64,000 nt of DNA, taken from NCBI RefSeq assembly GCF_963921235.1, contig NC_086097.1, positions 115,260,001-115,324,000 of the forward strand, read 5' to 3'. Positions 2,025-36,584 of the stretch are shown piece after piece. The stretch comes from Mobula hypostoma. Taxonomy: Eukaryota. Position 1 is the stretch's first letter. Each line of letters opens with the position of its first letter. The position numbers were made by a program, and so were the translations under genes. The notes beneath the pieces were generated by a model. It worked only from the letters and a program-made list of their open reading frames with translations. It did not search any database and was not told where the DNA came from.

Positions 2025-4495
2025 ACCATAAGACATAGAAGCTGAATTAGGCCATTTGGCTCGTCATCTGCTCCACCATTTAATCATGGCTGATCCATGT
2101 TTCCACTCCTCTGCCCAAGTCCCTGGCCTTCTGCCAGTAACCTTTGATGCTGTGTCTAATCAAGAACCTGTCAAGCTCTGCCTTAAATACACTCAATGAA
2201 CTGGCCTCCACAGCTGTCTGTGGAAATAAATTCTACAAATTCACCACCCTTTGGGTAAAGAAATTTCTCCATATCTCTGTTTTAAAAGGCCACCCCCTAT
2301 ACTAAGGCTGTGCCCTCTTGTCCTAGACTCCCTCACAATAGGAAACATCTTTCTACATCTACTCTGTCCAGGCCTTTCAATATTTGAAAGGTTTCAATGA
2401 AATCCACACCCCCCATCCTTCTAAATTCCAGTGAGTACAGACCCAGAGCTATCAAACATTCCTTTCATTCCTTTCATTCCTGGAATCATCCTTGTGAATC
2501 TCCTCTTTACCCCCTCCAATGCCAGCACATCGTTTCATGGATGAGGACCCCAAAACTGTTCACAATACTCAAGGTGAGGCTTCACGAGTGCCTTATAAAG
2601 CCTCAGCTTCACATCTTTGCTCTTGTATTCTAGACCTCCTGAAATGAATGCTAACATTGCATTTACTTTTCTCACCACCAACTCTACCTACAAGTTAACC
2701 TTTAGGGATTTCTGCACAAGGACTCCCAAGTCCCTTTGCATCTCAGATTTTTGGATTTTCTCCCCATTCAGAAAATAGTCTGCATACTTATTTCTACTAC
2801 CAAAGTGCGAGACCATGCATTTTCCAACATTGTATTTCATTTGCCACTTTCTTGCCCATTCTCCTAATTTGTCTATTTTCTTTTGCAGCCTACCTGTTTC
2901 CTGAACATTAAATGCCCCCTCCACCAATCTTCGTACCATCTGCAAACCTGGCAACAAAGCCATCTGTTCTAACATCTGAATTATTGGTATACAGTATAAA
3001 AAGAAGCAGTCCCAACATTGACTCCTCAATGGAACACCACTACTCAATGGCCACCAACCAGTAAAGGATCCTTTTATTCCCACTCACTGCCTCCTACCAA
3101 TCAGCCCATACTCTAACCATGCTAGTAACTTTCCGGTAATATCATGGACTCTGAACTTGGTAAGCAGCCTCATGTGTGGTACTTTGTCAAAAGCCTTCTG
3201 AAAGCCCAAATATGCAACATCCACTGCAATCCTTTTATCTGTCCTACATGTAATCTCCTCAAAGAATTCCCATAGGTTTAACAGGCAAGAATTTCCCTTA
3301 AGGAAACCATACTGACTTTGTCCTATCTCATCCTGGTTCTCCAAATACTCCATAACCTCATCCTTGATTCCAACATCTCCCAACAACTGAGGTCAGGCTA
3401 ACTGGTCTGTAATTTCCTTTCTGCTGCCTTCCTTCTTTCTTAAAGAGCGGAGTGACATTTACAATTTTCCAGTCCTCTAGCACCATGCCAGAGTCCAATG
3501 ATTTTTGAAAGATCATTACTAATCCCTCCACAATCTCTTCTGCTACAACTTTCAGAACCCTAGGGTGCAGTTCATCTGGTCTGGGTAACATGTGTACCCG
3601 TAGGTCTTTCAGCTTTTTTGAGCTCCTTTTCTCTTGTAATAGTAACTGCACTCGCTTCTTTTTCCTCACACCCTTCAACATCTGGCACACTGCTAGTATC
3701 TTCCACAGTGAGGACTGTTGCAAAATATTCATTTAGTTCATCAGCTATCTCCTTGGCCCCATTATTATTTCTCTAGGCTTATTTTCTAGCAGAGCTAGGT
3801 ACATCCACTCTCATCTTTCTTTTATTTTTTACATACTTAAAAGCTTTTACTATCCACATTGATTATGTTTGCTAGCTTGATTTCATATTTCATCGTTTCC
3901 TTCCTAATTTTTTTTTGTTGCTCTCTATAGTTTTTTAAAAGCTTCCCAATCCTATATCTTCCCACTAATTTTTGCTTTGTTGTATGCCTTCTTTTGCTTT
4001 TACATGAGCTTTGATTTCTCTTGTCAGCCACGGTTGTACTATTTTGCCATTTTAGTAGGTCTTTGTTTTTGGAATACATCTATCCTACACCTTCTTCATT
4101 TTCCCCAGAAACTCACACCATTGCTGCTCTCAAACAAGAGAAAATCTGTAGATGCTGGAAATGCCAAAGGGTCTCGGCCAAAAATGTCAACTGTACTTTT
4201 TTCCATAGCTGCTGCCTGACCTGCTGACTTTCTTCAGGATTTTGTCTCCATTGCTGCTCTGCTGTCATCCCTGCCAGAAACTTCTTCCATTTACTTTGGC
4301 CAAGTCCTCTCACATACTACTGTGATTTCCTTTACTCCACTGAAATACTGCTAATCAGCCTTTACTCTCTCCCTATCAAATTTCAAGTTGAACTTAATCA
4401 TATTATGATTACTGTCTCCTAAGAGTTCTTTTACCCTAAACTCCCTAATCCCCTCCGGTTCTTTGCACAAAACCTAATCCAGTATAGCAGATCCC
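2025..4495 (-). mobile_element. CR1 LINE 'A', 3' segment (decayed ORF2 RT and 3' UTR)
   Basis: ORF fragments GNYRPVSLTSVVG, FQKAFDKVPH, KWQMKYNVGKC. CR1-type 3' tail near 2025. Many frameshifts. Confidence 0.92.
4131..4247. mobile_element. Tiny Penelope-like terminal fragment (inverted piece plus direct piece) inserted in CR1 A
   Basis: 13-bp direct repeat ccattgctgctct at 4118-4130 and 4248-4260. The insert matches PLE ends elsewhere in the window. Confidence 0.8.
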
Positions 4496-6665: not shown

Positions 6666-8081
6666 GTCCCAGTACAATCCCTTGTTGAAGAGGTCAAGGT
6701 AGCCAAGGTAAGATCATTCTTGATGCTTCGAGACTCAAAAGATCCTGTCATCAAGAACACCCAGCCGGACATGAGATCAGGCAGGAAGTGGTCAGCCCAT
6801 GTAGGAGTTGATGAGGCAGAGTCTGGATTGAAGCACAAGGAAACGGTTGGGGCTATCCAGCTAGGCTGTCAGGTACTTGGATGGACAACCCACAATTAGT
6901 GGTCATCTTCTACAGGTAAGGAGCGCCATGAGCTTGTAACACAAGAGATCCGAGAGGTAGAAGAAGAGAAGAGGTTAGCTAAAATAGCTGGCCTGTCCAA
7001 ACAAGGGGCTTGGACCTGGTGGGAAAATGTTGAACAACGACATCTAACTTGGAATGTTCTGTGGCAGAAGGAACCGCTCTGCATTTCTTTTCTATGCAGA
7101 GCAGCGTACGATCTGCTCCCAACACCTGCCAACCTCAGCAGCTGGTGTGAAGATAAGACAGACAGGTGTGCTGTTTGTGGTGAGAAAGGAACATTTCAAC
7201 ATATTTTGAGTGCATGCAGAGTCAATCTTTCCAGCGGCATGTACACTTGGAGACATAACAACGTTCTCAAAGTTGTAACAGAAGCGGTTGAGCAGAGAGT
7301 ACTGCAGCACAACTTATCTCATGCCCCATGCTGCACAGAATATCGTATATCATTTGTGAAAGAAGGCTCCAAGTCAAGGGTGTGCAGCACAGGTTCACGA
7401 TCAAGCATACTTTCTTCAGCCAATGATTAGTGTATCAAGGCCGATCTGGATGGGAAAGGCAGTTTCCCGGAGCAAATAGCTTTCACCACATTACGTCCAG
7501 ATATAATCGTATGGTCTGACACCAGTAGAGAAGTGGTTATTGGTGAACTTACAGTTCCCTGGGAAGACAACATCGATGAAGCCCATGAGCGCAAGTTAAC
7601 CAAGTATGCAGAATTAAGATCAGAGTGCAGAGACAGAAGGTGGAAGTTCTCATGCTATCCATTCAAAGTAGGCTGCCGTGGGTTTATTGCGTTCACTTTC
7701 CAGAAGTGGCTGCGTGACATTGGTTTCACTAGAAGAGAGATCAAGTCAACCAGCAGGACTGTAGCTGAGGCAGCAGAGAAAGGATCAGCATGGGTGTGGA
7801 CCAAGTATGTCCAGAGGGGCAGATAGTCAGACAGTGTACACATATCTTGCAAACCCTTCAGTAGTGGCATAGACACCTGCAGAGCAGACTATCTGTTGGA
7901 TGGAAGTGACCAATAACTCTGATGGAGGCAGATGCCAAGTTTTTAAGCTCACCAATTGGAGGTGGTGCTTTAGCACTGCTGGCCCACCACCTTGAGGGAG
8001 TCTTGATCATAAGCGGGCCGAAACTCCTGAAGACAAGTGGCAGATCAACTGATGATCCTACTGGTGATAGCACAGAACAGT
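6666..8081 (+). mobile_element. 5'-truncated HERO-type non-LTR retrotransposon (restriction-like endonuclease); last ~29 nt displaced to 11378-11406
   Basis: One frame 6660-7826 with two TAG stops (6897, 7428): GRKWSA, QGAWTWW, YDLLPTPANL, CCHC knuckle CAVC..HILSAC, RHN, RPDIIVWS..ELTVPWE..K..KY, VGCRGF, AEKGSAWVW. Candidate TSD ttaact at 6660-6665 and 11407-11412. Confidence 0.85.
7996..8061 (+). ncRNA. Candidate non-circularly permuted hammerhead ribozyme in HERO 3' UTR
   Basis: gggagt-C-ttgatc ... GAAA-ctcct ... gatcaa-CTGATGA. Stem III ggagt/actcc and stem I ttgatc/gatcaa pair perfectly; stem II is imperfect. Confidence 0.65.
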
Positions 8082-11000
8082 TAAGACCATAAGACCATAA
8101 GACAAAGGAGCAGAAGTAGGCCATTCGGCCCATCGAGTCTGCTCCGCCATTTTATCATGAGCTGATCCATTTTATCCTATTTAGTCCCACTGCCCCGCCT
8201 TCTCACCATAACCTTTGATGCCCTGGCTACTCAGATACCTATCGATCTCTGCCCTAAATATGCCCAATGACTTGGCCTCTACTGCTGCCCATGGCAACAA
8301 ATTCCATTGGTTCACCACCCTCTGACTAAAAAAATTTCTTTGCATTTCTGTTCTGAAAGGGCGCCCTTCAATCCTGAAGTCATGCCCTCTCGTACTAGAC
8401 TCCCCTATCATGGGAAACAACTTTGCCACATCTACTCTGTCCATGCCTTTTAACATTCAAAGTGTTTCTATGAGGTCTCCCCTCATTCTTCTAAACTCCA
8501 AGGAATACAGTCCAAGAGCGGACAAACGTTCCTCATATGTTAACCCTCTTATTCCTGGAATCATTCTCGTGAATCTTCTCTGTACCCTCTCCAACATCAG
8601 CACATCCTTTCTTAAATAAGGAGACCAAAACTGCCCACAGTACTCTAAGTGAGGTCTCACCAGCGCCTTATAGAGCCTCAACATCACATCCCTGCTCCTA
8701 TACTCTATTCCTCTAGAAATGAATGCCAACATTGCATTCGCCTTCTTCACTACTGACTGAACCTGGAGGTTAACTTTAAGGGAATCCTGTACGAGGACTC
8801 CCTAGTCCCGTTGCATCTCAGAACTTTGAATTCTTTCCCCATTTAAATAATAGTCTGCCTGTTTATTTTTTCTGCCAAAGTGCATAACCATACACTTTCC
8901 AACATTGTACTTCATTTGCCACTTCTCTGCCCATTCTTCCAATCTATCCAAGTCTCTCTGCAGACTCTCCGTTTCCTCAGCACTACCGACCCTCCACCTA
9001 TCTTCGTATCGTCAGCAAACTTAGCCACAAAGCCATTTATTCCATAATCCAGATCGTTGATGTACAATGTAAAAAGAAGCGGCCCCAACACTGATCCCTG
9101 TGGAACACCACTGGTAACCGGCAGCCAATCAGAATAGGATCCCTTTATTCCCTCTCTCTGTTTCCTGCCAATCAGCCAATGCTCTATCCACGTATGTAAC
9201 TTTCCCGTAATTCTATGGGCTCTTATCTTGTTAAGTAGCCTCATGTGTAGCACCTTGTCAAAGGCCTTCTGAAAATCCAAATATACAACATCCACTGCAT
9301 CTCCCTTGTCTAGCCTACCGGTAATTTCCTCAAAAAATTGTAATAGGTTTGTCAGGCAGGATTTTCCTTTAAGGAATCCATGCTGAGTTCTGCCTATCTT
9401 GTCATATGCCTCCAGGTACTCTGTAACCTCATCCTTGACAATGGACTCCAACAACTTCCCAACCACCGACGTCAAGCTAACAGGTCTATAATTTCCTTTT
9501 TGCTTCCTTGCCCCCTTCTTAAATAGCGGAGTGACATTTGCAATCTTCCAGTCTTCCGGAACCATGCCAGAATCTATCGACTTTTGAAAGATCATCGCTA
9601 CTGCCTCCGCAATCTCCACAGCTACTTCCTTCAGAACACGAAGGTGCATTCCATCTGGTCCGGCAGATTTATCTACCTTTAGACTTTTCAGCTTCCTGAG
9701 TACTTTCTCTGTCGTAATTGTGACTGCGCACACTTCTCTTCCCTGCCACCCTTGGGTGTCCGGTATCCTGCTGTCTTCCTCAGTGAAGACTGATGCAAAA
9801 TACTTGTTCAGTTCCTCTGCCATCTCCTCATCTCCCATTACAATTTCTCCAGCATCATTTTCTATCGGTCCTATATCTATTCTCACCTGTCTTTTACTCT
9901 TTATATACTTGAAAAAGTTTTTAGTATCCTCTTTGATATTATTTGCTAGTTTCCTTTCATAGTTAATCTTTTCTCTCTTAATGACCTTCTTGGTTTCCTT
10001 TTGTAACGTTTTAAAAACTTCCCAATCCTCTGTCTTCCCACTAATTTTTGCTTCCTTGTATGCCCTCTCCCTAGCTTTAACTTTGGCTTTGACTTCTCTT
10101 GTCAACCATGGTTGCATCCTTTTTCCACTCGAAAATTTCTTCTTTTTTGGAATATACCTGTCTTGCACATTCCTCATTTTTCACATAAACTCCAGCCACT
10201 GCTGCTCTGCCGTCTTTACCGCCAGTGTCTCTTTCCAGTCAACTTTGGCCAGTTCCTCTCTCATGCCACTGTAATTTCCTTTACTCCACTGAAACACGGA
10301 CACATCAGATTTCGGCTTCTCTTTTTCTAATTTCACAGTGAACTCAATCATGTTATGATCATTGCCTCCTAAGGGTTCCTTCACCTCAATCTCTCCAATC
10401 ACCTCCGGTTCATTACACAATACCCAATCCAGTACAGCCGATCCCCTAGTGGGCTCGACAACAAGCTGTTCTAAAAAGCCATCTCGCAGACATTCTACAA
10501 ATTCTCTCTCTTGAGATCCAGTGCCGATCTGATTTTTCCAATCTACTTGCATGTTAAAATCCCCCACAATTATCATAACACTGCCCTTTTGACAAGCCTT
10601 TTCTATTTCCAGTTGTAATTTGTAGTCCACATCCCTGCAGCTGTTTGGAGGCCTATAAATAACTGCCATCAGGGTCTTTTTACCCCTGCTATTCCTTAGC
10701 TCAACCCATAAAGATTCTGTACCTTCCGATCCTATATCACCTCTTTCTAATGATTTAATATCATTTCTTACCAATAAAGCCACGTCTCCCCCTCTGCCTA
10801 CCTTCCTATCCTTCCGATACACCGTGTATCCTTGGACGTTCAGCTCCCAGAGACATGCATCCTTTAGCCAGGTCTCAGTGATGGCCACAATATCATACCT
10901 GCCAATCTGTAGCTGTACAACAAGATCATCCACCTTATTCCTTATGCTGCGTGCATTTAAGTACAACACCTTAAGACCAGTATTTGATACTTTTTGCTTT

Positions 11001-35850: not shown

Positions 35851-36240
35851 TCTGTAGAACCAGAAGTTTTGGGTTAAGAGTAAAAGGTGAAATATTTAAG
35901 TGAAACCCCTGGAGTAACTCTTTATTCAGAGGGTGTCGAGAGTACGGAGCGAGCTGCTAGAAGAAGTGGTAGATGCTGGTTTGACTTGTATAGGTATGTG
36001 TGTGGGAGAGGAATGAAGGGCTATGGTCCAGTTGTGGGTTGATGGGACAAGGGAGAATAATACTTTGGCATGAACTAGAGAGGCTGAATGCCCTGTTTCC
36101 ATGCTGAAGTGCTTCATGACTCTATTTCAAATTCCCTCCCTGCATCAGATAAGATATAAGATACAGAAGCAGAATTAGGCCATTTGACCCACTGAGTCTG
36201 TTTTACCATGTAAATTTCCTCTAAGAAACGGACTTCACTG

Positions 36241-36458
36241 TGTACATACATCTATTGATGCTTCTGGACACATCTTCAGTGATGTTCCTGGAATCACTGG
36301 GTGTTTCGGGTCTTTCAACATCATACACCCTCCTCCAGGTGACCCAGCCGGGGCTGATCAGACCCCAGATTGTGTCCAGATGGCTAGCTACTTATGACTC
36401 CATGGCTCCCCTCTTTTGAGCCACAGCCATCTTGAGGCCCTCTCTGCCACATCGGTGG
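36241..36458 (-). mobile_element. 3' end of a second HERO-type family
   Basis: Minus strand encodes TTDVAERASRWLWLKRGEPWSHK*, which parallels AEAAEKGSAWVWTK of the 6666 element, followed by a 3' UTR. Confidence 0.75.
36266..36330 (-). ncRNA. Candidate non-circularly permuted hammerhead ribozyme (second HERO family)
   Basis: gggtgt-A-tgatgtt gaaa gaccc-GAAA-caccc [12 nt] aacatca-CTGAAGA-tgtgtc. Confidence 0.7.
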
Positions 36459-36584
36459 TAAATGTTCTTCAGATCTCATGATCGACCATAGAATGTGGAG
36501 CAGTTAAGCACGGAGCCTTTAAGGCTCATTGCCATGGCCAAAAGCATGACAGGAGAGCAGGGCTACAAGACTGAAATGAGGCCT

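Follow-up and report, generated by a model that had tools for sequence, protein, structure and literature searches.

The question raised by this locus is whether a short stretch on the minus strand of a 64,000-nt window of the Mobula hypostoma genome (the whole stretch of DNA analysed here) is a real hammerhead ribozyme, how its strands are connected, and what it would do for the retrotransposon that carries it. We propose, with a probability of about 0.6, that the hammerhead in the 3' UTR of HERO elements cleaves its own transcript and re-ligates it into a unit-length circular RNA, which is copied more than once round. The minus-strand letters at 36330-36266 match the reading given in the first-pass annotation, and the block order described there as ZYX (equal to S-G-C) is confirmed, with the hammerhead core present. 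Stems III (36330-36325/36304-36299) and I (36323-36317/36286-36280) are both perfectly paired as claimed, and the predicted cut 3' of 36324 agrees with the core numbering, U16.1 being 36325 and A17 36324. The features are collected in Table 1. Judging by its translations, the window overall presumably consists mostly of decayed CR1/L2-, L1- and RTE-like LINE fragments.

Table 1. Features of the two HERO copies and of their hammerhead motifs, in window coordinates
Feature	Position	Strand	Remark
Family 2 element: 5'-truncated HERO-clade LINE copy, 223 bp	36238..36460	-	95-99% to 29 other loci
ORF end (C-terminal tail after restriction-like endonuclease) and stop	36388..36460	-	
Predicted hairpin directly 5' of G10.1; loop palindrome UGAUCA at 36360-36355	36348..36368	-	fold
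Stem II 5' strand GGGUC, G10.1 = 36345	36341..36345	-	overlooked in the first-pass annotation
Fourth helix, 5' strand CCUGGA	36334..36339	-	corresponds to the 'I' helix of type SGC
Kink-turn signature, non-bulged strand (G, G, A)	36331..36333	-	
Block S: stem III strand GGGUGU and A17	36324..36330	-	predicted cut between 36324 and 36323
Stem I strand UGAUGUU, 3' of the cut	36317..36323	-	
4-nt linker and stem II 3' strand GACCC, C11.1 = 36308	36308..36316	-	
Block G: G12 A13 A14 A15.1 and stem III strand	36299..36307	-	
Kink-turn signature, bulged strand: 3-nt bulge AGU, then G, A, U	36293..36298	-	
Fourth helix, 3' strand UCCAGG	36287..36292	-	
Stem I strand AACAUCA and core CUGAAGA (C3-A9)	36273..36286	-	no conserved stem II strand after it
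Small predicted 3'-terminal hairpin, ~10 nt before the element end	36248..36261	-	similar one predicted in many relatives
Family 1 motif, same architecture; stem II 5' strand 7981-7985	7981..8055	+	
Family 1 core: U16.1 = 8001, C17 = 8002, GAAA 8020-8023, CUGAUGA 8049-8055		+	

The motif is carried by two families of elements. The copy under study (family 2) is a truncated dead fragment that ends 86 nt past the predicted cut with no poly(A); its ORF tail, AERASRWLWLKRGEPWSHK*, is present as annotated, with the stop at 36390-36388 and the motif 58 nt after the stop. A search of the genome with family 2 gave 1714 first-look candidates, from which 40 were scored and 29 other loci fetched, and these 29 reach further 5' than the window copy. 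The corresponding search for family 1 gave 1725 candidates; the copy at 7996 belongs here and spans about 6667-8084 (+). The 3' UTRs of the two families have no blastn alignment outside the cores, and their C-terminal proteins are 41% identical. The assignment to a HERO-type element is supported by the ORF domains and by clustering with HERO reference proteins. Longer copies have a single ORF with an RVT_1 domain (E 1e-18) and a C-terminal Cys-His knuckle (zf-RVT below cut-off), and the restriction-like endonuclease motif RPDIV...ELTVPWE...K (PD..D/E) can be read by eye in them; no GIY-YIG endonuclease was found in these copies, the restriction-like motif being present instead. Searching with the C-terminal 315 aa yielded 374 protein matches, the named ones among the best 120 being from teleosts and lancelets, with 60-61% identity to AAN12398 and BAC82598. 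In a quick tree of 85 C-terminal rows, which leaves out aligned segments <170 residues and contains no other clades as outgroup, an SH-aLRT of 100 unites family 2 with BAC82598 (Takifugu), BAC82599 and AAN12398 (both Tetraodon) and one protein from Branchiostoma; family 2 thus falls inside a supported HERO clade, and family 1 lies deeper. The closest known elements by protein are thus the HERO-clade LINEs (HEROFr, HEROTn, HERODr) and Zebulon. AAN12398 is, we presume, the Zebulon element of Tetraodon, which was reportedly described as a partial tandem by Bouneau and colleagues in 2003. HEROFr and HEROTn are listed as AB097130 and AB097131 in PMC2790886, and from the species and this listing we infer that they encode BAC82598 and BAC82599. 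A read-through ending such as RLGRPGEGV* is seen in at least 15 teleost proteins; it back-translates to block S, which makes it likely that the motif is present in those fish too. The N-termini of L073 and P0055 contain a Cys-Cys...His...Cys zinc-finger-like motif before the RT; according to PMC2790886, HERO has no motif upstream of the RT.

Chance had been called unlikely on the strength of two copies, and this holds after shuffling: 0/3160 dinucleotide-shuffled regions matched a descriptor that demands the core letters CUGANGA, GAAA and UH, all of which are present. With block S, GAAA, CUGANGA and stems I and III as the descriptor, only 8001(+) and 36325(-) are found in the 64-kb window; 15 dinucleotide shuffles of the window, scanned on both strands, give one match, and none once the upstream stem II described below is added. 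The suggestion that the motif is a clade-wide feature is likewise upheld, with the motif in 58/79 HERO-like loci. These loci were fetched from metagenome contigs (the best 80 of 393 confirmed among 600 stretches; 36-84% identity). The strict descriptor matches 45 of the 79, compared to 0/79 reverse strands and 0/66 ORF-internal stretches, and a relaxed scan of the other 34 loci adds 13 credible matches, none on reverse strands. Among the 21 motif-free loci, 10 stop no more than 160 nt past the ORF, 2 stop short of the place where their clade has the motif, and by eye 3 look decayed and 1 deleted; the other 5 are simply without it. No motif was found in L174, L197, L207, L210 and L212 by the strict and relaxed scans, even though L174 and L212 are tandem-looking. 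A relaxed match in L197 is AT-rich and was discarded as chance. An apparent motif-free clade in the tree proved to be an artefact of scan length, the motif lying at +725 in L178 and at +618 in L193. The clade of L178, L186, L187 and L193 has a long 3' UTR rich in GGATTA/TAATCC words, with the motif 620-730 nt after the ORF wherever the contig extends that far. In the source genome, a pattern of block G, kink-turn GA and core has 3712 matches against 121 for the reversed pattern, and one 25-mer of the motif has 1642 exact matches (reversed control 0). At least 3 or 4 further sequence families with the same spacing of G-block, GA and core are seen among the first 100 matches listed. Rfam gives 0 matches in the window at the gathering score and none in 16 loci at E<=1, as expected for its hammerhead models because the form is permuted. 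No relatives were found among viral contigs. HERO-like fragments on four short bacterial-assembly contigs (L218-L221) were left unused and are probably animal DNA contamination. The motif is a real clade-wide RNA structure and not a product of chance.

Its connectivity differs from that first described. The first-pass annotation placed stem II between the five bases before GAAA and a strand downstream of the core (36271-36267, four of five positions), and both this stem and the topology built on it have to be given up: across relatives the downstream pairing is at the level of permuted controls, and the strand that covaries is located 5' of the cleavage site. The five bases that precede GAAA have their perfect complement in a strand ~19-25 nt upstream of U16.1. 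In the window copy this strand, 36345-36341, sits 20 nt upstream of the cleavage site, with a duplex energy of -10.1 kcal/mol versus -2.9 for the downstream partner. In an unselected test on 39 non-redundant loci, 37 of them with enough sequence, an upstream run of at least 5 bp from position 11.1 is present in 32/37, compared to a mean of 8.3 when strands are cross-paired (never above 16 in 5000 permutations that used the same window search), and 20 different 5-mers occur among the upstream strands; the downstream stem is found in 4/37 loci versus 6.0 expected, which is chance level. When three special cases (L182, L189, L196) and two truncated rows are left out, 167/170 cells of the upstream stem are paired in the remaining 34 rows, position 10.1 is G in 34/34, and its partner is C or U in 33. 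The downstream stem was tried in three registers and rejected, with 70, 79 and 58 of 170 cells paired versus 67, 70 and 63 after permutation. Covariation scores, taken from a MAFFT alignment of 26 rows preselected for the upstream stem II, are 0.90 for the upstream and 0.24 for the downstream stem, the latter like its own slid controls.

The three special cases, two of which are related, have an upstream strand without G10.1 and a G directly after A9 (3/3 versus 3/34 of the others). The break is shifted by one base in these loci, and the rest of stem II is supplied by the upstream strand. That a G is supplied after A9 when the upstream G10.1 is missing suggests selection on the core. A9 is not joined to G10.1 directly or through 1-2 nt, apart from this one pair in L182, L189 and L196. 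The A9 phosphate and the N7 of G10.1 form a metal site in the hammerhead, and it would survive the break between the two residues. Stems I, II (with the upstream strand) and III show compensatory changes with the G10.1-Y11.1 pair kept, and the core letters are constant across proteins of 36-84% identity, with N7 varying freely; it should be mentioned that the descriptor itself imposes part of the core invariance and of stems I and III. Two related copies, L153 and L173, both have U in place of C3, and H17 is G in L202 and C in its relative L194. A cleavage construct limited to 36266-36330 lacks the 5' strand of stem II and would probably fail.

The segment annotated as a 12-nt linker is not single-stranded: it comprises one strand of a kink-turn signature and one strand of a 6-bp helix formed with 36339-36334. 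Stem III is extended through a 3-nt bulge and tandem G-A pairs into this fourth helix, whose 5' strand begins one base after the stem II strand and whose 3' strand runs into stem I. The kink-turn consensus is a 3-nt bulge followed by tandem G-A/A-G pairs between two helices, and this geometry is found in 26/39 loci versus 1.0 in shuffles (strict signature 25/39). A shorter form without the signature, in which stem III continues into the fourth helix through a one-sided bulge, is seen in L167, L175, L189, L196, L199-L205 and L216. The strand order that covariation shows for this predicted structure is stem II 5' strand, fourth helix, kink-turn signature, S, G and CUGANGA, and we regard a structure with the upstream stem II and the fourth helix as very nearly certain. 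With a program that does not allow pseudoknots, the minimum-energy fold of the window copy contains the hairpin, the fourth helix and stem III, and stem I and the upstream stem II are absent from it (z-score -1.4). The kink would fold the strand from stem III back toward stem I, and would solve the distance problem noted for some SGC RNAs in PMC10085705. A hairpin adjoins G10.1 in 30/33 relatives and could compete with the G12-A9 stack. Near G10.1 a palindromic hexamer is found in 25/39 loci, compared to 8.7 in shuffles and 98/481 control windows. The hexamers, in or near the hairpin loop, differ by locus (UGAUCA, UGUACA, UGGCCA, GACGUC, CCUAGG), and such a palindromic loop is a possible dimerisation signal through which two RNAs, or two copies of the ribozyme, may pair. 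Pairing of the strand 5' of G10.1 with the one after A9 was considered and dropped, as both form local hairpins. The predicted 3'-terminal hairpin is a possible RT recognition site.

The S-G-C order is that of type SGC (HRIMA-1 and variants), described by Eckert et al. 2023 (PMC10085705) from metatranscriptomes only; their type-SGC RNAs, which share the four helices seen here, self-cleave in vitro, and one GCS candidate is the only exception to their statement that none was found in the genomes of known organisms. Besides the order, the HERO motif has in common with type SGC the four helices, a short stem I-II linker (4 nt here, typically 3 in SGC) and a fourth helix that links the far ends of stems I and II. 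As in SGC-1, the stem II strand is followed by 1 nt and then by the strand that pairs directly before stem I. The difference lies in stem II, whose strand follows CUGANGA in the type-SGC RNAs presented there, whereas in HERO it is upstream of S and joined to stem III via the kink-turn signature. The scheme given in PMC10085705 assumes that block C is uninterruptible, CUGANGA running directly into stem II, and it allows six permutations because CUGANGA and the stems are treated as one block. HERO elements appear to break this one-block rule, so that existing descriptors and the Rfam models miss them, and with block C broken the motif is not filed as a type SGC member. Since the four-helix map of SGC-1 is the same as that of HERO, the HERO motif is best read as the SGC pairing map with a break between A9 and G10.1 and a new connection between the fourth helix and stem III, that is, as a hammerhead with a strand order that we have not found described. 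No hammerheads broken or inserted at A9/G10.1 were found in the literature outside subscription journals. The absence of a precedent from these searches, together with the one-block assumption in PMC10085705, weighs against activity of this topology. On balance, we consider the motif quite probably catalytic. The distal five pairs of stem I, AUGUU/AACAU (36317-36321 / 36282-36286), equal those of stem I of SGC-1 as given in PMC10085705, be it through chance, convergence or kinship.

Partial tandems may connect the motif with replication. Among loci chosen by a search with the 5' regions of the elements, the 3' end of another copy lies directly upstream in 14/30 for family 1 and 9/30 for family 2. 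The junction is seamless, with one per family (80 exact copies for family 2); the upstream pieces are 30 to 1687 nt long and span the predicted cut in 10/14 and 3/9, respectively. The unit length is 3614 bp in one family 2 insertion and about 3.85 kb in family 1. For 17 tandems examined, of which 14 have both ends and 3 have no second end in the stretch, the closest match of the upstream piece is the insertion's own downstream end in 9/14, with two ties, and rare variants are common to both ends of one insertion in 21/100 cases versus 2.0 expected. The shared variants indicate that the duplicated end was regenerated from the same template or homogenised afterwards; they could also stem from gene conversion or template jumping. 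In the metagenome set, 12/39 loci with at least 800 nt downstream have the N-terminal part of the ORF next, on the same strand, and these tandems may be collapsed assemblies. Two contigs from public runs span the junction, with only 29 letters on one side and with their RNA status guessed.

A set of 30 unbiased family 2 copies shows how the ends are distributed. By ungapped extension, 27 of them end 83-89 nt past the cut, one runs into the next unit and two have indels, and no poly(A) was found in the set. None of the 30 has its 5' end at the cut, the nearest being 68 nt upstream, so the genome shows no scar of cleavage, and no indels were found across the cut. A perfect 6-bp stem III is present in only 3/25 scorable copies; most copies have a U-C mismatch at the fourth pair. 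Target-site duplications were looked for in 15 copies, with none consistent. Run-on of the 3' end into the next unit was set aside as a candidate signal, as the next base is C in 23 and T in 27 of 53 scorable ends and a pyrimidine preference explains this equally.

We propose that the transcript of a partial tandem would carry two ribozymes, and that cuts at both would free one unit. With the cut inside the motif, such a unit could pair tail to head through three helices, which would favour ligation: the 17 bp that stem II, fourth helix and stem III have in this copy would clamp the 3' tail to the 5' part, and the ligation could be done by the ribozyme itself or by a host ligase. Target-primed reverse transcription would then start at a point past the cut, about 86 nt in family 2 and 110 nt in family 1, and continuing past one full round would regenerate the partial tandem. 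A fixed start on a circle combined with a random stop would give both the usual 5'-truncated copies and the partial tandems. We judge a circular RNA intermediate slightly more likely than not. The fuller statement, that HERO LINEs may be autonomous protein-coding elements that replicate via a ribozyme-made circle, with a seventh hammerhead topology broken at A9/G10.1 and a kink-turn closing a four-helix cage, stands in our view at even odds.

For Penelope-like elements, which have hammerheads in their pseudo-LTRs and form tandems, Cervera and de la Pena (2014, PMC4209133) proposed a circular template for reverse transcription beyond unit length. Head-to-tail partial tandems with regenerated ends, as in Penelope- or retrozyme-like replication, are present in HERO, and the hammerhead in the terminal repeat and the proposed circular template are common to these systems. 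Penelope-like elements and retrozymes have type I or minimal hammerheads, with a GIY-YIG endonuclease or no ORF, whereas the HERO elements are LINEs that encode RT, a zinc knuckle and a restriction-like endonuclease. HERO is also similar to R2, a restriction-like-endonuclease LINE with an HDV-like 5' ribozyme, in that a self-cleaving motif is tied to transcript processing (cited in PMC13725137); in R2 and other LINEs the ribozyme is of a different class, lies at the 5' end and does not need ligation. Literature searches outside subscription journals and Repbase found nothing on HERO with a hammerhead, a ribozyme or a circle model, and those on kink-turn with hammerhead and retrotransposon, or on type SGC, outside subscription journals, found nothing on the HERO motif.

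The tandems and shared variants would also be explained if the ribozyme were active and the template linear, its unit ends held together by base pairing and the RT crossing the nick by a jump from the RNA's 5' end to its own 3' end. R2-type RTs are known for end-to-end template jumping. A nick should leave pausing or added bases, and we therefore count the clean sequence at the cut site, where none of the 30 unbiased copies starts and no indels occur, against a linear template, which we consider unlikely. A similarly low weight is given to a dead or slow hammerhead-like scaffold that binds the RT or a host protein, with the tandems made by read-through multimers, template switching or gene conversion. 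The missing cleavage scar, the stem III mismatch in the dominant subfamily, the lack of a tested precedent found for the A9/G10.1 break and the tandems with no motif found in L174 and L212 all fit a scaffold; it does not account as readily for catalytic core letters and a G10.1 that are kept in very divergent elements while the stems change freely, or for a G10.1 that comes from the other side when it is missing upstream.

An ordinary type SGC ribozyme, active through the downstream stem II and switched off by the upstream pairing, is a reading to which we assign very little probability. The downstream strand of family 2 can make 4/5 pairs, a few loci have 3-4 adjacent downstream pairs, and SGC-1 has the same extra U after A9 in PMC10085705; however, all three registers of downstream pairing give permutation-level counts, slid controls do just as well, and only the upstream strand places G10.1-Y11.1 beside G12. 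It is just as improbable that the motif acts as an R2-like 5' ribozyme or 3' UTR silencer, the upstream copy trimming the 5' end or aiding translation and the downstream copy being off. A partial tandem does have one ribozyme 5' of the ORF, and ribozyme-aided translation is described for other elements in PMC13725137. Against this, 13/23 upstream pieces continue beyond the upstream cut, something that could not arise from a trimmed linear template, and the tandem piece would erode in every cycle unless regenerated.

If the reading of a self-cleaving and self-circularising HERO motif is true, animal genomes contain thousands of copies of a non-circularly permuted ribozyme. The motif bears on the origin of poly(A)-free head-to-tail partial tandems in some non-LTR elements, and on whether a circular RNA can serve a genuine LINE as template. 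Tools for RNA-based gene insertion could benefit as well from a compact motif that circularises itself and comes with its own RT.

It is also noted that internal deletions occur in 5/30 of the unbiased family 2 copies (L222, L223, L237, L240, L247), joining unit position about 660-730 to about 3326-3376 with breakpoints that differ. Long-range pairing was considered as their cause and rejected, the energy being -63.7 versus a mean of -51.8 kcal/mol, with better windows elsewhere. These deletions may reflect either recurrent template switching or a short non-autonomous form.
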